This document shows positions 2,704 through 60,883 of a DNA stretch of 64,000 nucleotides, one piece after another (within the stretch, counting starts at the first letter, position 1; each line of letters begins with the position of its first letter). Under the pieces are notes generated by a model, which ran no database searches, was not told the origin of the DNA, and worked only from the letters and a program-made list of their open reading frames with translations. This DNA is from a virus: the IMG/VR virus record IMGVR_UViG_3300027777_000023, positions 96,001 through 160,000 of that record, one strand, 5' to 3'. Made by a program: the position numbers and the translations under genes.

Positions 2704-4197
2704 ATGACCAGATCACACATTATTCAGCAGTGCGTAAAGCTAAAGCAGCAGAAAAAGGGCATTGTCCCGTTTTTGAAAAAGCACGGGTATTCAGATAGAG
2801 AGATTGAAAATTTTAAAGTAGAGCTCCGGGGTGACCAGATTGAAGAGCTTCCTCGTAGGAACGTGCTCAATGACGATGTATTGGGTAAGACTGAATGGAA
2901 GAGTGACCTGAAGTTTACAGAGAAGTATGTATACAACAAAGAAACAGATAAGTACGTAATCTATCTAAAAGCTGCCAACGGTAACATCGTACTGAGTGGT
3001 GACATTGTCCGCAGTCTTGTAGAAAACTATTCCAATTGGTACGGTAAAGAACACAGCATCAACGAGATTTGCAGAAATTACAAAATCCCGCGCAACTATT
3101 TTAACGAACTAAAAGACATCCTGGGCATTACCCACGACTCAGAACCCATTACAAACGAAGAACTTCTTGAGCGTGATGTAGATGAGATTACTGAAGATCT
3201 ACTGCAAAAAAAGAAGTTTCAGCTATATCAGCAGTTCCAGAAACGTAGCTGGGAACAAACGCAAGATGCAGCAGACAAGTGGTTCAAGATGCAGGTGGGT
3301 GTGTATGACCCCTTCACAGAGTTTCTCAACAACTGGGAACCTCCGGTATATTTACCCATCAGGTATTCTGGACCAGCTAAAAGCAAATCCTCAGGCAAGA
3401 CCCTACTTGTAGGCCTATCCGACATTCACTTTGGTGCCAAGACTAATGCTCGCGAGTCTTATAGAGGTAAAGGCTATAGCACTGAAGAAGCTGTTGAATG
3501 TCTCCAGACATATAGTGAGAATATTAAAGACCTGGTGGAAGAAAGATGCTATACTTTCGACTCCTGCCTAATTGCGTCTCTTGGCGACATCCTGCATACA
3601 ACTGGTGCTGGATTTACAACCAAAGGCACTATGCTTGTACACGACTGTATCAAAGAAGAACAGTTTAACTTTGCTTTCGACAGTATAGTACGGTTCATCT
3701 CAGACATGCTCTCATTGTTTCCTAGAGTCGATGTGAAGAGCGTTAAAGGTAACCACAACGACTTTGGTGATTATGTACTGTTCAAGGCTATCGGTGCTTA
3801 CTTCAGATCTGAGCCAAGAATCTCATTTGATAACTTCCAAACAGACCACGGCCTGTTCAAAGTAAACAAATGCTTGTTTATTATCTCGCATGGCTACAGC
3901 GCTGAATACAAGGGTCGTCTTCCTGCTGCAGGTAAGGCTCGTGAAAGCTATATCACAAACTTGTTCTTGTCTAAACCTGAAGAACTCATCGGCGTTAATC
4001 AAAAAGTTCTTCTTACCGCAGATCAGCACCATCTAGAGATGCGCGAGTATGCCGAATTCGAGCATTATATGCTCAGCACAGCCGTTCGTGGTGACAAACA
4101 CTCTGAAGCTATGGGAATGAACAATAAGGCCCGGCAAAGCTGCTTTGTGATCGGTAATGAAGGTATCAAAGAAATCTTGTATTGCTACAGTAAGTAA
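2704..4197 (+). CDS. Calcineurin-like metallophosphoesterase with helical N-terminal region
   Basis: Motifs in order: GLSDIHFG, LGDILH, GNHND, SHG, DQHH. Confidence 0.85.
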   Translation: MTRSHIIQQCVKLKQQKKGIVPFLKKHGYSDREIENFKVELRGDQIEELPRRNVLNDDVLGKTEWKSDLKFTEKYVYNKETDKYVIYLKAANGNIVLSGDIVRSLVENYSNWYGKEHSINEICRNYKIPRNYFNELKDILGITHDSEPITNEELLERDVDEITEDLLQKKKFQLYQQFQKRSWEQTQDAADKWFKMQVGVYDPFTEFLNNWEPPVYLPIRYSGPAKSKSSGKTLLVGLSDIHFGAKTNARESYRGKGYSTEEAVECLQTYSENIKDLVEERCYTFDSCLIASLGDILHTTGAGFTTKGTMLVHDCIKEEQFNFAFDSIVRFISDMLSLFPRVDVKSVKGNHNDFGDYVLFKAIGAYFRSEPRISFDNFQTDHGLFKVNKCLFIISHGYSAEYKGRLPAAGKARESYITNLFLSKPEELIGVNQKVLLTADQHHLEMREYAEFEHYMLSTAVRGDKHSEAMGMNNKARQSCFVIGNEGIKEILYCYSK

Positions 4198-4642: not shown

Positions 4643-4664
4643 GTGATATTTTTAGGGTTATTTT

Positions 4665-4680
4665 TGGTATAATATATTGA
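4665..4680 (+). promoter_or_regulatory. Extended -10 promoter TGGTATAATATATTGA
   Basis: TGnTATAAT plus conserved tail; identical 16-mer at 33579 and 37171. Confidence 0.75.
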
Positions 4681-4715
4681 GGGAGCTACAACTAGCTTTC
4701 ACAACTAACCCTAAT

Positions 4716-4928
4716 ATGAAAACAAAAGAACAAGCCGTCCTTAAACCACATGATTCCCAACCCACCCAAAAAACGCAAGCAATTGCGTACTGGTGTGTAG
4801 TGATTATAGATCTACTAACTATCAAGTACGCAAGTACTAACTTTTGGGAAAGTATATTACTGCTGTGCCTTGGAGGCACAAGTGCAGTGCTCATGCTGCA
4901 GTCGGCGTCAATTTGGAGAAAAGAATGA
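4716..4928 (+). CDS. Small membrane protein
   Basis: ATG at 4716 downstream of promoter; two hydrophobic segments. Confidence 0.6.
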   Translation: MKTKEQAVLKPHDSQPTQKTQAIAYWCVVIIDLLTIKYASTNFWESILLLCLGGTSAVLMLQSASIWRKE

Positions 4929-4932
4929 CCAT

Positions 4933-5190
4933 ATGATCTCAGCAAAGTATTATACGAAAGACCATCACAAGGACAGGCGGAAAGCCGTAAGAATGGGAGG
5001 GATGTTCAAATTCCCTTCCAACAGTTCTAGGGAGGAAACACTAAAACAGCTGGAGATAGCCAGTGCGCTAATTAACAGCCTGTTTGATGACGATACCATC
5101 ACCAGAGAAATTCGATTTATCTGGACAATAGATGGGGTCGAATTAAAGACTGAATACAGTCTGCCAGAATCGTTGGAGTTATTTAGATAA
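4933..5190 (+). CDS. Hypothetical protein (85 aa)
   Basis: ATG at 4933; ORF ends just before the tRNA. Confidence 0.65.
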   Translation: MISAKYYTKDHHKDRRKAVRMGGMFKFPSNSSREETLKQLEIASALINSLFDDDTITREIRFIWTIDGVELKTEYSLPESLELFR

Positions 5191-5197
5191 ATTAAAT

Positions 5198-5274
5198 GCA
5201 CCTGTAGCTCAGTCGGATAGAGCAACGGATTTCTAATCCGTCGGTCGTTGGTTCGAATCCAACCAGGTGCACCA
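5198..5274 (+). tRNA. trnR: tRNA-Arg(UCU)
   Basis: Acceptor GCACCTG/CAGGTGC, D-arm TAGCTCAGTCGGATAGAGC, anticodon arm ACGGA-TTTCTAA-TCCGT, T-loop GGTTCGAATCC, encoded CCA. Confidence 0.97.
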
Positions 5275-6524: not shown

Positions 6525-6801
6525 CATAGCAAGTATGCTAATAATAGTGACAGTCGTCGCTAGCCTTGGTCTATCCTCAAATAAGCCTGCTGTTGTTAAT
6601 GGCCGAACTCAATCGTCAACCGTGGGGTATTGCCCGGCTGAGGCGGTTGCAACGGTTGACGATACCAAAAGCGATCGGTGGGACAGTGAATATATTCACT
6701 GTAAGATATGCTGGCAAGGAGCGTTATTACCCGATAGTACAGGGGTAGTCCGCTGCTCCTATTGCGGAAAGCCGCAAAAGAAAGAAATTGCAGCAAACTA
6801 G
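6511..6801 (+). CDS. Small exported/membrane protein with C-terminal Zn-ribbon
   Basis: N-terminal hydrophobic helix; CKIC...CSYC. Confidence 0.65.
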   Translation: MRTINIASMLIIVTVVASLGLSSNKPAVVNGRTQSSTVGYCPAEAVATVDDTKSDRWDSEYIHCKICWQGALLPDSTGVVRCSYCGKPQKKEIAAN

Positions 6802-6826
6802 CTGTTCCCCTCCCCCACCCCTGAAC

Positions 6827-6875
6827 AGAAAGAAGCCATTCGCCTAGAGATAGGTTGGGTGGCTTCTTTTTTAGC
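6827..6875 (+). terminator. Intrinsic terminator ending in TTTTTTAGCT
   Basis: AAGAAGCCATT...GGTGGCTTCTT stem followed by U-tract. Confidence 0.8.
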
Positions 6876-6880
6876 TATCA

Positions 6881-6945
6881 GGTACCCCCCCTCCCCTCCC
6901 CCAGGGTATAAATAGGTAGGTGTGTGGTATAATACTTTGAATCAG
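6881..6945 (+). promoter_or_regulatory. Cassette promoter 1: GGTACC-polyC, TATAAATAG-N9-TGGTATAATACTTTGAATCAG
   Basis: Same architecture and spacing at 7426-7476 and 13402-13456. Confidence 0.8.
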
Positions 6946-7416
6946 AGTTGTGTAGATATAGCGTAAAACCTATATTTATATTAACCGGCAATGATTCGCT
7001 GCGTATTCCCCGGCACGAGGATACAGCTAGGGTTAAGCTAGATCTCTGTATGTACAAGCAGAGAAGCCCGGTCGGTCGTCCCTGCCAGACACATAACAAT
7101 GGTTCCACTCGTGGCAGGAGAGTGAAACCAAAACCCTCACCCATGGGTGGGTCACCTATTAGGTGACCCAAGGGTCGCGCCAAGTTGACAAGCCAGGGTC
7201 TTCAATTACAGTTTAATCAGCTATAGCAAACCTCGAGGCGGCGAGAGAGGCTATAGTATGATCTGTAATTATGAAAAGTAGCTGAAAGGCTCACCTAGCT
7301 AAAGATGGACAAGATACATCTAAAAACCCGGATTAAGGGCTAACAATCCTTATGGGCTAAAATCTTCAACCGATAAATGGTCGGCAATGGAGTAAAAGCG
7401 TTAACGCGCTTTTTTT
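6940..7416 (+). ncRNA. Candidate large structured ncRNA with RNase P RNA-like landmarks
   Basis: Own promoter and terminator, no credible ORF, many nested stems (e.g. GGGTCACC/GGTGACCC 7149-7169; TTCAATTACAG 7201 with CTGTAATTATGAA 7263; CTATAGC/GCTATAG). Confidence is for ncRNA; RNase P identity is lower (~0.4). Confidence 0.7.
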
Positions 7417-7420
7417 AGCT
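7394..7420 (+). terminator. Intrinsic terminator ending in TTTTTTAGCT
   Basis: AAAAGCG-TTAACG-CGCTTTT plus U-tract. Confidence 0.65.
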
Positions 7421-7425
7421 ATCGG

Positions 7426-7500
7426 GTACCCCCCCTGTATAAATAGTAGTTTGAGTGGTATAATACTTTGAATCAGCGGCCAGTAACTGCTGATAGTTTT
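7426..7500 (+). promoter_or_regulatory. Cassette promoter 2 with hairpin leader
   Basis: polyC, TATAAATAG-N9-TGGTATAATACTTTGA; 7456-7500 is identical (45 nt) to 13436-13480. Confidence 0.85.
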
Positions 7501-7508
7501 TGTTTGTT

Positions 7509-7835
7509 ATGAAAAAATTCAGAGACATCATGGTTCTTAAACAAGTCAAAGAAGTAGTCTGCCACCTCGGCCGGCCATTGGGCAAGGCGTATTCACTCGA
7601 ATATACCCCCCACGGGGTAGTGTTGAGGCGCAGTGATGACTTGGTCTGGCGCTCAGAAGAGAGCCAGATCGAGAAAGTCAAGGAAGCGCTGCAGTCACCA
7701 CAAGGTCTCAAGGTTGAGATCTTGGTGGATGGCTGCGATGAACCAGTTTACACCCCTCCCGACTGGAGTTGGTGTCAGGCGGAGCTGGAGGAGGCAGACC
7801 TTGTAGAGCTGGATCACATGCCTAGTGCATGGTGA
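7509..7835 (+). CDS. Hypothetical protein (108 aa), single-gene cassette
   Basis: ATG at 7509 between promoter 2 and a terminator. Confidence 0.75.
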   Translation: MKKFRDIMVLKQVKEVVCHLGRPLGKAYSLEYTPHGVVLRRSDDLVWRSEESQIEKVKEALQSPQGLKVEILVDGCDEPVYTPPDWSWCQAELEEADLVELDHMPSAW

Positions 7836-7957: not shown

Positions 7958-8740
7958 ATGAGCAAAAAAGTGCTATCATCGATTAAGCCTGTTTGTCAGG
8001 TGACCTCCGGAGTCGAATCCGGAAAAGCAGTAGCAGTATCGGCCTTCAAAGCCGAAATGTTGGTGGCCTTGAAAAAGGTCACCAAGGTAGAGTGGGCGGG
8101 ACTCGCAGCTGGGGTCATGATGATGACGCTCATCGGGATGATGGGCTATGGGGCCGGAAAGGCCCTGGAAGAGCAGCAGAAGGCTCTCCAGAGCCTGTCA
8201 GTTAGGTTGGATGAGGCGGCTGATATAGGCGTCTCCCTGAAAGGGGAGATAGCCGCCCTGCGCCTCACGTTGGTGGCGGTGGAGACAGCTGAAGAGCTCC
8301 ACACCAGACGCGAAGAGCTCCAAACCAGACGCCTTGACGGGCTAAGTCTGATGGCAGGCGATGGGGCAAAGAAGGTCGCCGCCCTTGAAGGAGCGGTAGA
8401 CTCCAACGCCAAAAATACGGCGGTAGAGCTCGCAACCATTAGGAATGGAGTTGCGGGCGCAGCCGAAGTTGGGCGGGCAGGGCTTCTGGTAAGCAGTCAA
8501 ATGGGGTGCTTGATAGGTTCAAGCATGCTGGGCGAGAAGGTGCGGGAGGTGGCCAAGGCCATGGCTCCAATGGTGGAGCCTGTGTCTTGGTACAACCCGA
8601 CGGCGGAGGTGATAGCACCCACAGCACCCATAGCAGAGGTGCCAGCACCCATGCCAGCACCCATGGCAGAGGTGCCGCCACCTGAATCCTGGACAGCCAG
8701 GATGCGCAGTCGACTGGCGGCGACCCTTCTCGCCAAATGA
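7958..8740 (+). CDS. Membrane-anchored coiled-coil protein with Pro-rich tail, single-gene cassette
   Basis: TM WAGLAAGVMMMTLIGMMGYGAG, long helical region, APxAEVP repeats; visibly GC-richer than flanks. Confidence 0.8.
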   Translation: MSKKVLSSIKPVCQVTSGVESGKAVAVSAFKAEMLVALKKVTKVEWAGLAAGVMMMTLIGMMGYGAGKALEEQQKALQSLSVRLDEAADIGVSLKGEIAALRLTLVAVETAEELHTRREELQTRRLDGLSLMAGDGAKKVAALEGAVDSNAKNTAVELATIRNGVAGAAEVGRAGLLVSSQMGCLIGSSMLGEKVREVAKAMAPMVEPVSWYNPTAEVIAPTAPIAEVPAPMPAPMAEVPPPESWTARMRSRLAATLLAK

Positions 8741-57570: not shown

Positions 57571-57906
57571 ATGCGCCCCATAGAAAAGATAAAAAGTATT
57601 ACCATACGGAACAAACGCTACAAGTTTGTGGTAAAAAAACTGCGACATGCCAGAGGCAGAACAGAACACCCAGACACTAAAAACAAGACAGTGTATATAG
57701 ACTCTAGAGAAAAAGGCAAAGCGTTGCTGTCCACGCTTATTGATGAGCTCATACATTGCGCTATCTGGGATATACAGAACGAGATCGTGGATGAGATCTC
57801 TGACGGCATGGCCGATGTGTTGTGGCGCTGTGGACTGAGGTTTACAGACGAGACGGATGAAACCCTGGAAAGCACAACATCAACATATGTCTCTAAAAAC
57901 CTTTAA
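57571..57906 (+). CDS. Small zincin-like protein with DExxH in place of HExxH
   Basis: STLIDELIHCA; ATG at 57571 after TGTTATAGT. Confidence 0.55.
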   Translation: MRPIEKIKSITIRNKRYKFVVKKLRHARGRTEHPDTKNKTVYIDSREKGKALLSTLIDELIHCAIWDIQNEIVDEISDGMADVLWRCGLRFTDETDETLESTTSTYVSKNL

Positions 57907-60883
57907 ATTTGCCCTAGTTCACGGCAAGCTTACAAAAGTGCCAAAGTCGCAGAAGTCGAAATATAGCATGATCGACCCTTCGCACTTCTTCAGCCCTGTA
58001 ACTAATCTTATTCCAGGACTCAGCTCAGTATCAGGTGCACGCGTACTAATCGGTGACAAGTCTTCGCTGCAGGCCATGACACTCACCAATCGTGAGGCTC
58101 CTCTGGTGCAGGCAGCGCCCAAAGCCGGAGGCGGAGACAGTTTTGCAAAGCAGTTTGGTAAACTTGTGAGTATTTCTGCAAAGACTGACGGCGTGGTATC
58201 TAAAATCGAGGACGACCACATGATCGTCAAAGACTCGGCAGGTAAAGAACATCATCACGACCGCTACAATAATTACATCATAGGGCGTGAAAGCTATATT
58301 CACCATACACCTAACGTAAAGGTTGGCGATAAAGTTAAAGAAGGACAACTACTGGCAACATCCAACTACTCTGACCATGAAGGCACATTATCATTAGGGA
58401 TGAACCTTAAAACAGCCATCATGCCGTTCAGATCTTTGAATTTCGAAGATTCTTTGGCCATATCTGAGTCAGCAGCTAAAAAATTGGAAGGGGAGCAGCT
58501 TATTCCTGTGCGTATGGAAATTGCTAGAGGGATCTCTACCGACAAAGACAGGTACATCTCTTTATTTCCAAACAAATACTACAACGACCAGCTCTCACAC
58601 ATAGACAGTCATGGTGTGGTGAAGAAAGGTACCGTATTGAAACACGGAGATCCGATCATCCTAGCTTTTCAACCTAAAACACTAAAGTCCCTTGATATCC
58701 AGCTAGGCAAACTGTCCAAAGTTATTCGTAACGCTTTCTCAGACATTTCAGTGGCCTGGGAGTATGAGTATGAGGGTGTGGTGACGGATACTTCAGCCAG
58801 TGGCGGTCTTGTGGCTGTGACAGTAAAAACAAAAAGACCCATGAGTCATGGCGACAAGCTCAACATGCCTTTTGGTGCAAAAGGAGTAGTAAGTATTGTT
58901 CCAGACACGCAAATGCCTCAAGGCGAAGACGGCAAACCTGTGGATGTGTTGTTGAATTCCATGAGTATCACTAGTCGTGTTGCTCCGGGTTTGGTGAATG
59001 CAATTGGTTTGGGTAAGCTGGCCCAAAAGCAGGGCAAAGCACTTACAATGACAGGTTTCACCGAAGGTTCAGCTGTCCAGAAAGTGATTGATATTTTGGA
59101 CAAGCACGGAATAAAAGATACCGAGAAGCTTTATGATCCTTTGTCTGGTAAGCACGTTGAAGTACTCACAGGTCCTCTGTATTTTAATCGTTTGCACCAT
59201 ATCGCAGAAGACAAGATATCCGCAAGATCGGCGGCCACGACGTATGATATCAATATGCAGCCTTCAAAGGCAGGCTCGCACGAGAAAGCTAAGCGTATAG
59301 GTAATTTGGCAACAACTGTTGCCCTATCCAACGACGCCAAAGCAGTGCTCAGAGATATTGCCACAGTCAGAGCAACAAAGAACGACGACTTTTGGACAGC
59401 TTTGAAGCTCGGTTTGCCGCCACCTCCACAAAAAGTACCGTTCATATTTGATAAATTTATAGGTCACCTCAAGGGGGCTGGTGTTAATGTACAGCAGGAT
59501 GGATCTAAATTTCATATCATGCCGCAGACAGATAAAGATATTGTGGCGATGTCTCAGGGAGAAATTAAAGAACCTCTAACGTACAAAATTAGAAAAGATT
59601 CTCTTATCGAAGAAGAACACGGGCTTTTTGATCCGTCGTTGGTGGGTATCCATGGCGATAATTTTAATCATATAAGCTTAAACCATAGAATTCCTAATCC
59701 TATGGCCGAGGATCATCTGCGCAAGCTTTTGAAGATGACCAAAAATGCGTACGAGGAAGCAGCCGCATCAGGCTCGATCGAGAAAGACCTTAAAAAGATC
59801 AACGTTGACGAAAAGATCGCAGAACTCAAAAAGGTCATAGGGCTAAAAAAGAAAACCGGTAGAGACGACGCAATTAAATCTCTCAGCTTTCTAACGATGC
59901 TAAAGCAGCACAATCTAAAGCCTGAGGATATGTTGTTGTCTAAGATCCCGGTGATTCCTGCGCAATATCGCCCTGTTATGGTTCAGGGGGATCAGGCACT
60001 GACTGCAGACGTTAATGAGCTATATAAGGATTTAATCATGGTGAATAAATCTTTTGGGGCAGCCAAAGATTCTCCTGACGTTGATCCGGAACACCTCAGT
60101 ACAGCAAAGAAGCAGATATATAATGGTGTTAAAGCTGTTTTTGGTTTAGGTGGACCTATCAACCAGAAGAGTATTGAGAAAGGCTACAAAGGATTATTGG
60201 CTTCTGCTCTGGGTTTGCAGGGAGGCTCGGCCAAAGAAAGTATGTTTCAGGCAAAGGTGGTTAATAAGCCTATTGATCTTGTAGGTCGAGCTGTTTTGCT
60301 GCCGGACTCTAATCTAGATCTAAATCAAAGCAGTATTCCTCAATCTGTAGCGTGGAGCATTTATTCCCCTTTTGTGATTCGGCGTATGGTTCGCATGGGA
60401 ATTCCAGCAACGAAAGCCAGAGAATATCTAGAACACAAACACCCATTAGCGTTACAGGCACTGCATGAAGAGATGGCTGATCGTCCAGGAATCGTTACGC
60501 GAGATCCCCAGCTGTCTAAATACAACTTCCAGGGAATGTATTTGAAGATGAATCCTGATCCCAAGGATTTCTCTATCAAACTAAACCCTCTCGTGTTTAA
60601 GGGATATGGGGCGGACAGTGACGGCGATCAACTCAACGTACAGGTTCCTGCATCAGAAGAAGCAAAGGAAGAAGTCAAGGAGAAGTTATTGCCGGAAAAG
60701 AACTTAATTTATCACCGCACTTTCTCACCAATTTACACTCCCTCGAATGAAGCTGCAACAGGCTTATTTGCTGCTAGTTTTGAGGATAAGAAAAATCAAC
60801 CAAAGAAATATCACTCAGAGCAAGAAGTAGTTAGAGACTTTCTTGCTGGTAAATTAGATATTGGTGACAGGGTAGAAATATAG
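57887..60883 (+). CDS. RNA polymerase beta C-terminal / beta-prime N-terminal fusion carrying the catalytic DxDGD
   Basis: beta: LSLGMNLKTAIMPFRSLNFEDS, GDKL..FGAKGVV, GPLYFNRLHHIAEDKISARS. beta': IPVIPAQYRP, KPIDLVGRAV, RDPQL, LNPLVFKGYGADSDGDQLNVQVP. Confidence 0.93.
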   Translation: MSLKTFKFALVHGKLTKVPKSQKSKYSMIDPSHFFSPVTNLIPGLSSVSGARVLIGDKSSLQAMTLTNREAPLVQAAPKAGGGDSFAKQFGKLVSISAKTDGVVSKIEDDHMIVKDSAGKEHHHDRYNNYIIGRESYIHHTPNVKVGDKVKEGQLLATSNYSDHEGTLSLGMNLKTAIMPFRSLNFEDSLAISESAAKKLEGEQLIPVRMEIARGISTDKDRYISLFPNKYYNDQLSHIDSHGVVKKGTVLKHGDPIILAFQPKTLKSLDIQLGKLSKVIRNAFSDISVAWEYEYEGVVTDTSASGGLVAVTVKTKRPMSHGDKLNMPFGAKGVVSIVPDTQMPQGEDGKPVDVLLNSMSITSRVAPGLVNAIGLGKLAQKQGKALTMTGFTEGSAVQKVIDILDKHGIKDTEKLYDPLSGKHVEVLTGPLYFNRLHHIAEDKISARSAATTYDINMQPSKAGSHEKAKRIGNLATTVALSNDAKAVLRDIATVRATKNDDFWTALKLGLPPPPQKVPFIFDKFIGHLKGAGVNVQQDGSKFHIMPQTDKDIVAMSQGEIKEPLTYKIRKDSLIEEEHGLFDPSLVGIHGDNFNHISLNHRIPNPMAEDHLRKLLKMTKNAYEEAAASGSIEKDLKKINVDEKIAELKKVIGLKKKTGRDDAIKSLSFLTMLKQHNLKPEDMLLSKIPVIPAQYRPVMVQGDQALTADVNELYKDLIMVNKSFGAAKDSPDVDPEHLSTAKKQIYNGVKAVFGLGGPINQKSIEKGYKGLLASALGLQGGSAKESMFQAKVVNKPIDLVGRAVLLPDSNLDLNQSSIPQSVAWSIYSPFVIRRMVRMGIPATKAREYLEHKHPLALQALHEEMADRPGIVTRDPQLSKYNFQGMYLKMNPDPKDFSIKLNPLVFKGYGADSDGDQLNVQVPASEEAKEEVKEKLLPEKNLIYHRTFSPIYTPSNEAATGLFAASFEDKKNQPKKYHSEQEVVRDFLAGKLDIGDRVEI

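Follow-up and report, generated by a model that had tools for sequence, protein, structure and literature searches.

In lifestyle, GOLLD and ROOL RNAs are the closest described counterparts of the RNA considered here. Both are phage-borne and lie near tRNA genes; the 3' region of GOLLD is conserved and its 5' region less so, and ROOL, an RNA of approximately 500-600 nt found near tRNA islands in phages and prophages, has neither a known protein partner nor a known function (10.1101/2024.12.08.627333). The locus that we analyzed lies in a 64,000-nt stretch of phage DNA, referred to here as the window, and its predicted RNA product is approximately 477 nt in length. This RNA resembles GOLLD (RF02032) in being phage-borne, in lying near a tRNA gene, and in combining a conserved 3' part with an unconserved 5' part, which is a likeness of lifestyle only, but it is shorter than many GOLLD RNAs, whose lengths exceed 800 nt. 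It is similar to ROOL (RF03087) in size and in its proximity to a tRNA gene, but differs from it in helices and in sequence. A search of the whole phage with RF02032 at E<=10 gave no match, nor did scans with all of Rfam. RF03087 gave no match either, with a control that was silent in every genome; the all-Rfam scans are the real test of ROOL, and they were also negative. Membership in GOLLD or ROOL was rejected, as both models fail on the window RNA.

Three other systems invite comparison. The RNA is comparable to bacterial RNase P RNA (RF00010/RF00011) in length and in the presence, in the right order, of look-alikes of CR-I, CR-II, and CR-V, but it lacks P1 and a canonical P4 and fails every model search. 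3'-UTR-derived small RNAs and structured terminator-proximal elements occur in bacterial mRNAs, and phage morons are promoter-gene-terminator cassettes. Our unit shares with morons its own promoter and terminator and its residence in a variable slot, and differs from them in that its cargo appears to be RNA.

The window corresponds to bases 96001-160000 of an IMG/VR phage record that is 189.6 kb long and rated 97% complete. This phage carries a gene for a fused beta/beta'-like RNA polymerase subunit (window 57857-60883) and also encodes a ribonucleotide reductase. The RNA unit lies within a variable region located 3' of a conserved gene for a 497-aa protein (window 2704-4197), and the region holds a tRNA-Arg gene (5198-5274), which is the sole match in the window in an Rfam scan at gathering thresholds, together with a row of single-gene cassettes. 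The 497-aa protein resembles calcineurin-type metallophosphoesterases in its motifs (D-x-H, GD-x-x-H, GNH-x-D, and SHG), which lie in columns that are invariant across five phages; searches of Pfam and PHROGs with it gave no match. Relatives of the phage were gathered via the polymerase (67-82% amino acid identity) and via the 497-aa protein, and they possess the same variable region, tRNA islands of 3-5, and the same promoter type.

Cassettes in this region are separated by a boundary with a fixed order of elements: a terminator, AGCTATC, a run of C, TATAAATAG, and the extended -10 promoter TGGTATAAT. The boundary repeats constitute families D10, D13, and D15, and the combination of terminator, AGCTATC, and poly-C is found four times. 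Upstream of the RNA unit, the boundary and promoter occupy positions 6864-6939 of the + strand, where repeats of all three families are present and where the T-run of the preceding terminator with AGCTATC is followed by poly-C, TATAAATAG, and the extended -10 at 6926-6934; the same promoter cassette is seen again at 7456 and 13436. Most other cassettes in these phages have a protein cargo, and cassettes other than the two with the conserved 3' module end in a plain terminator.

Several features of the surrounding cassettes can be recorded here. In many cassettes of relatives, the ATG lies exactly 6 nt past the extended -10 (TATAAT-ACTTTG-ATG; examples are L029:4725, L030:4553, and L031:5045), which implies leaderless mRNAs, and other cassette genes start after A/C-rich leaders that lack a Shine-Dalgarno sequence. 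At window 4648-5274, the promoter whose counterparts in relatives drive tRNA arrays directly is separated from a lone tRNA-Arg(TCT) by approximately 520 nt (z = -4.4), in which there are frames of about 70 and about 85 codons. The tRNA-Arg(TCT) seems to lie at the 3' end of an mRNA and to be co-transcribed with it. ARAGORN calls a tRNA-Gly(GCC) on the - strand at window 8627-8702, inside a 260-aa ORF (7958-8740) in a stretch of 60% G+C; the Rfam tRNA model does not report it, and the call is probably a false positive. Two relatives carry related small, very basic proteins (beginning M-(A)-NKNTRA...) in cassettes beside tRNA genes (L032:6663-6866 and L031:3375-3518). The 111-aa and 187-aa proteins encoded next to the unit have no relatives in IMG/VR.

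The RNA unit appears to be bounded by its own transcription signals. The promoter just described lies 6 nt ahead of leaderless ATGs in several cassettes of relatives, from which we infer a transcription start at approximately 6940. At the other end, an intrinsic terminator (7395-7416, + strand) consists of the stem AAAGCG/CGCUUU and a U-run, is kept in the homologue described below with one extra loop base, and is followed by the next cassette boundary; a simple scan missed it because its T-run lies partly inside the stem. The view of the initial annotation that the unit has a dedicated promoter and terminator is borne out at the level of sequence features, which are in place and belong to a cassette type that is repeated in the window and in relatives.

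Its view that the unit contains no credible ORF holds as well. Over the 477 nt from start to terminator, the longest ATG frame on the + strand has 38 codons (7050-7166). A 72-codon frame that starts with TTG (6948-7166) was never picked by gene callers, has a codon score below that of the neighboring small genes, and has no relative among 5.8 billion proteins. The window frames also lack the A/C-rich unstructured leader that precedes other cassette ATGs.

The predicted minimum free energy (MFE) of the 477-nt unit is -152 kcal/mol, corresponding to z = -3.9 (z = -4.7 in a re-run), whereas 477-nt segments drawn at random from this phage have a mean z of -0.77 (sd 1.7). Little weight can be placed on folding energy by itself, however, because a neighboring mRNA-like stretch (4676-5197) reaches z = -4.4.

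A homologue of the 3' half of the unit was found in a lake phage (L050; IMGVR_UViG_3300009151_000461), one of 36 loci fetched with the 497-aa protein. RNA positions 249-476/477 match L050 with 84% identity over 217 nt by BLASTN and with E = 2.5e-40 by nhmmer, as compared with 66-74% identity for protein-coding DNA of the two phages. The conserved 3' domain spans window positions 7178-7416 on the + strand, its counterpart being L050:5523-5759, and the module is located at differing genomic positions in the two phages. The cassette that surrounds the L050 copy is of the same type: it has a poly-C tract, its promoter is TGTGGGATAATACTTTGAAT, and TTTTTTTAGCC follows its terminator. A second contig that carries the L050 cassette is identical to it and adds no variant, so that only two variants of the module are present in everything that was searched.

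From an alignment of window 7178-7416 with L050:5523-5759 we drew up ten helices, which were chosen with both sequences in view and are also predicted from each sequence alone. In this one pairwise comparison, each of the 52 pairs is canonical in the window and in L050 alike; six have double changes, two have compatible single changes, and no pair is broken. The double changes are of the types A-U/G-C, G-C/A-U, U-A/C-G, and G-C/U-A. When the 3' partners were shifted by 1-3 columns as a control, 33-41% of cells paired and at most one double change appeared. Random placement of the 30 differences broke a mean of 11.3 pairs and never reached zero in 200,000 trials, giving P(no broken pair) < 5e-6; P is 2e-5 if the invariant hairpin is left out. 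G.U pairs occur on the + strand only, and the window and L050 share no reading frame in the module. Because the pairs are kept, the G.U pairs are confined to the + strand, and no frame is common to the two copies, the 3' domain at 7178-7416 is, as judged from two sequences, a structured RNA under selection. Both of the general marks of a structured non-coding RNA that were looked for in 7178-7416, namely the compensatory maintenance of pairs and the absence of a conserved reading frame, are found there. The collection of homologues and covariation check that the initial annotation had proposed thus yielded one homologue in which six pairs changed on both sides and none was lost. Its suggestion of a new class of non-coding RNA is upheld for the 3' half by these compensatory changes, and is no more than tentative for the 5' half.

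The 3' domain is made up of a series of hairpins, all on the + strand. The most prominent is a long interrupted hairpin of 67 nt (7204-7270) with 24 pairs, a UUUA bulge, an AAAC/AGAG internal loop, and an AGGCGG apical loop. The two phages have identical versions of it apart from the closing pair, A-U in the window and G-C in L050, whereas about one position in five differs in the module outside it; at that outside rate, the probability of 65 unchanged positions would be roughly 0.8^65. This hairpin therefore seems to be constrained in sequence as well as in shape, which points to a sequence-specific partner. A 4-bp hairpin follows at 7280-7291 (AGCU-GAAA-GGCU in the window and GACC-GAAU-GGUC in L050), with two double changes and one single compensatory change. 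Its GAAA tetraloop (7284-7287) has a UAUGG word, similar to half of an 11-nt tetraloop receptor, 60 nt downstream (7351-7355), and in L050 the tetraloop and the receptor-like word are both altered (GAAU and CCAGGG); this could be a tertiary contact whose two sides vary together, or it could be chance.

The conserved strand CACCUAGCU (7292-7300) is predicted by MFE helices, in which no covariation is seen, to close a junction holding the long hairpin and the 4-bp hairpin. In L050, the partner of this strand is GCUAGGU, immediately 5' of the long hairpin, and all 7 bp are perfect. In the window, a C.A mismatch interrupts the pairing with the local partner (7192-7197), while partners that give 6 perfect pairs with 7292-7300 exist at 7027-7032 and 7036-7041; the unconstrained MFE fold uses the latter. 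These folds suggest that approximately 155 nt of extra structure may be inserted at the junction of the window RNA. The similar words ACAGCUAGGGU and ACAAGCCAGGGU (window 7018-7035 and 7183-7200) flank the excess of approximately 155 nt over L050, an arrangement that an insertion or a duplication at the junction could have produced.

Downstream of the junction, a 5-bp hairpin at 7303-7321 (AGAUG/CAUCU in the window and AGGCG/CGCCU in L050) shows two double changes and keeps its loop core ACAAGAU. It is followed by the conserved CR-V-like motif AAACCCGGAUUAAGG (7323-7338), which is kept in L050. CCC at 7327-7329 may pair with GGG at 7354-7356 around a variable hairpin, forming a candidate helix whose pairs are invariant. 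A compound hairpin at 7364-7392 has an outer stem, CUUCA/UGGAG, and an inner stem, CCGAU/GUCGG, that is CCUAU/AUAGG in L050, with one double and one single change. The conserved single-stranded motifs of the domain are CACCUAGCUAAAG, ACAAGAU, and AAACCCGGAUUAAGG.

The 5' domain (6940-7177, + strand; z = -3.8) appears to be specific to the lineage of the window phage. Hairpins are predicted in it at 6946-6979, 7043-7064, 7081-7118, and 7149-7169; the second has AUG 7050 in its loop, and the last has 9 bp and a triloop. BLASTN searches of 43 related phage records with the full RNA or with the 5' half gave no match, nor did blastn searches of GenBank phages. In metagenomes, one 20-mer from the 5' half gave two chance matches, one of which lies in a group II intron reverse transcriptase. 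In a comparison of the window with L050, the promoter and the 3' module are conserved and the stretch between them is unrelated, including its reading frames. The 5' half of L050 likewise has no relatives in the related records.

The slot that the unit occupies varies in content from phage to phage. In the nearest relative (L038), whose flanks are 82-97% identical at the nucleotide level, a protein frame of approximately 90 codons sits in exactly the same slot, and two other genomes (G002 and G004) have small leaderless ORFs there. A covariance model of the module (R1), run on 44 related records, found it in 2 of 44, which are the two known copies. Since the closest relative has a protein gene in the slot and the module is present in 2 of 44 records, the unit is a rare accessory cassette that is swapped in and out. 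Searches of IMG/VR with the hairpin tip and with two conserved two-block patterns returned the L050 contig only, and a two-block pattern gave four chance matches in 185,579 genomes, all of them negative by the covariance model. Further contigs with the neighboring genes end exactly at the repeated cassette, and the RNA is absent from what those contigs show because they break at this repeat.

The same variable region of a related phage (G010; IMGVR_UViG_3300035188_001379) holds an unrelated ORF-free stretch of approximately 460 nt (L031:5577-6040; z = -6.5). It is preceded by the same promoter type, contains three copies of a GCAUGCUA.G.AAGUAUGC hairpin, and has at its end a hairpin overlapping the following ATG; the stretch may be a long leader. 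Rfam gave no match to it, and none of 43 records contained a relative.

We examined the likeness to RNase P RNA that had been noted in the initial annotation. All of the landmarks that it listed are present: TCGCTGC at 6996-7002, GCAGAGAAGCCCGG at 7058-7071, TGCCAG..TAAC..TGG at 7083-7102, CAGGAGAGTGAAACCAAAA at 7115-7133, GTCGGT at 7071-7076 with GTTGAC at 7184-7189 followed by AAGCC, and AAAACCCGGATTAA at 7323-7336. Model searches do not support the connection. With all of Rfam 15 at E<=10, no RNase P family matched 6800-7520 or either half, the halves having been searched with the laxest filters. Rfam E-value scans of 6800-7520, 6940-7200, 7178-7416, and the L050 and L031 RNAs gave chance-level matches only (for example, SMAD5-AS1, mir-230, Methylobacterium-1, PVX_3, and ARRPOF), and the group II intron domain model RF01998 gave no match. 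Searches of the whole phage at E<=10 with RF00010 and RF00011 gave no match, with controls that gave a signal in 11 of 14 genomes, and RF00373 gave no match at the locus. RF00373 did give an 11.8-bit partial match elsewhere in the phage, just ahead of the window on the - strand (G000:C1:95825-95927), with E = 0.03 for the genome and a cut-off of 84 bits; this match is most likely due to chance. A P4-type two-block pattern had no match in IMG/VR.

The proposal that the unit is a highly diverged phage RNase P RNA or an RnpA-titrating mimic, with 7058-7071 and 7323-7336 forming a P4-like pseudoknot, is one to which we give almost no credence. The three RNase P-like motifs in order score 22, as compared with 13.0 +/- 2.3 for dinucleotide shuffles, none of which (0/150) equaled them, but these strings had been selected with the sequence already known. 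The CR-I-like match taken alone is at chance level, being reached by 83 of 150 shuffles, and the excess comes from the CR-II-like match (reached by 9 of 150) and the CR-V-like match. Of these motifs, the CR-V-like AAACCCGGAUUA is kept in the homologue, and tRNA genes are close by. The CR-I-, P8-, and CR-II-like motifs, however, all lie within the 5' domain and have no counterpart in L050; because the homologue retains the 3' half only, conservation does not extend to these elements, and L050 has nothing at the homologous place that corresponds to the 5' strand of the supposed P4. As had been noted at the outset, the P4-like pairing requires a G.A pair and a bulged C where a G-C pair and a bulged U are universal, and CR-III is not evident in the unit. 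The 3' end is occupied by local hairpins and the terminator, and a P1 pairing of the ends is absent from the MFE, centroid, and constrained folds. In RNase P RNA, CR-V is followed only by the 3' strands of P2 and P1, whereas in the window RNA the CR-V-like motif is followed by approximately 80 nt with three hairpins. Neither the diverged rnpB nor the decoy for host RnpA that the initial annotation had offered survives the negative model searches and the loss of these landmarks from the homologue. A DNA-level element, that is, a recombination, replication, or packaging site in which the inverted repeats are read as DNA, is also very improbable. It would account for the mobility of the module between cassettes and its different genomic positions in the two phages, and the invariant 67-nt sequence is an imperfect inverted repeat with extrahelical bases. 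Against this, the G.U pairs of the + strand become C.A on the opposite strand, the compensatory changes fall in short hairpins of 4-5 bp, as is typical of RNA, and the element is bounded precisely by a promoter on one side and a terminator on the other. Moreover, no gene with a Pfam annotation adjoins the L050 copy in gene table L081, and neither copy was seen to have a recombinase close by, the L050 side of this observation coming from the gene table alone.

A further possibility, which we regard as doubtful but which deserves more weight than either of these, is that the 240 nt are a cis-acting 3'-UTR/terminator module of small-protein morons, with a role in mRNA stabilization, 3'-end processing, or release of a 3'-UTR-derived sRNA. 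The cargo would then be a real 62-aa protein in L050, and in the window either a micro-peptide of 16 or 38 aa or the remnant of a gene, an assignment that is itself doubtful. In L050, an ATG frame of 62 codons lies within the promoter-terminator cassette, and the module begins where the stop codon of this frame ends; the module shares its terminator with the frame, as would be the case for a 3'-UTR-derived sRNA. The codon score of the frame (0.045) is equal to that of the neighboring small genes (0.05). The conservation of promoter and 3' module around an unrelated intervening stretch, and the protein cargo of most other cassettes also fit such a module, and the 38-codon ATG frame in the 5' half of the window unit counts against the two-domain reading given below. 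The 62-aa product, however, is an ORFan among 5.8 billion proteins, and the stretch that would encode it (L050:5270-5522; z = -5.65) has three perfect hairpins of 7-11 bp, with GAGA and GCAA tetraloops and a UAC triloop, in a domain that is closed by a 9-bp long-range helix; this frame may be non-coding. The window has no credible ORF preceding the module; its frames score lower and lack the A/C-rich leader. Other cassettes end in plain terminators with no such module, and the module, at approximately 240 nt with at least five helices, is much larger than typical 3'-UTR-derived small RNAs. Five helices with conserved loops would seem to exceed the needs of a 3' stabilizer.

The reading that we prefer, with a probability of roughly 0.5, is that the window unit specifies a new two-domain phage non-coding RNA of approximately 477 nt that is similar to GOLLD and ROOL in lifestyle only. 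The chances seem to us even that the window and L050 transcripts are both two-domain non-coding RNAs of approximately 480-490 nt, with a common 3' core and interchangeable 5' domains. According to this two-domain model, transcription of an accessory moron-type cassette of a 190-kb freshwater phage would begin near 6940, under a sigma-70-type promoter with an extended -10, and would stop at the terminator at 7395-7416; the product would be a two-domain non-coding RNA of approximately 477 nt. In it, the 3' domain (7178-7416) would be the conserved functional core and the 5' domain (6940-7177) a fast-evolving or lineage-specific part. We infer that the RNA would act in trans, and that the invariant hairpin and conserved loops would offer a platform to which a protein or RNA partner binds sequence-specifically, with the RNA serving as a scaffold or decoy, as has been proposed for other large phage RNAs. 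A broader proposal is more tentative and rather unlikely to hold in full. It takes the window RNA and its L050 counterpart to be the founders of a new family of large modular phage RNAs, in which a portable 3' core with the 67-nt hairpin moves among lake jumbo phages in cassettes, carries swappable structured 5' domains, and functions in trans; the RNA would be a decoy or scaffold directed against a host factor, or else a self-assembling GOLLD/ROOL-like particle.

A phage RNase P RNA would have been remarkable; what the window RNA offers instead is a new structured RNA domain with covariation. Its carriers are uncultured freshwater jumbo phages that have their own RNA polymerase and tRNAs and whose cassettes are swappable. 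To our knowledge, large phage RNAs such as GOLLD and ROOL are still without a known function. Each unrelated family with the same lifestyle, that is, near a tRNA gene and with a conserved 3' core and a variable 5' part, would strengthen the case that big folded RNAs are accessory weapons or tools of phages, and would supply a further, smaller object for structure determination and pull-down work. The invariant hairpin, set beside stems that covary freely, hints at a sequence-specific partner that could be fished out.
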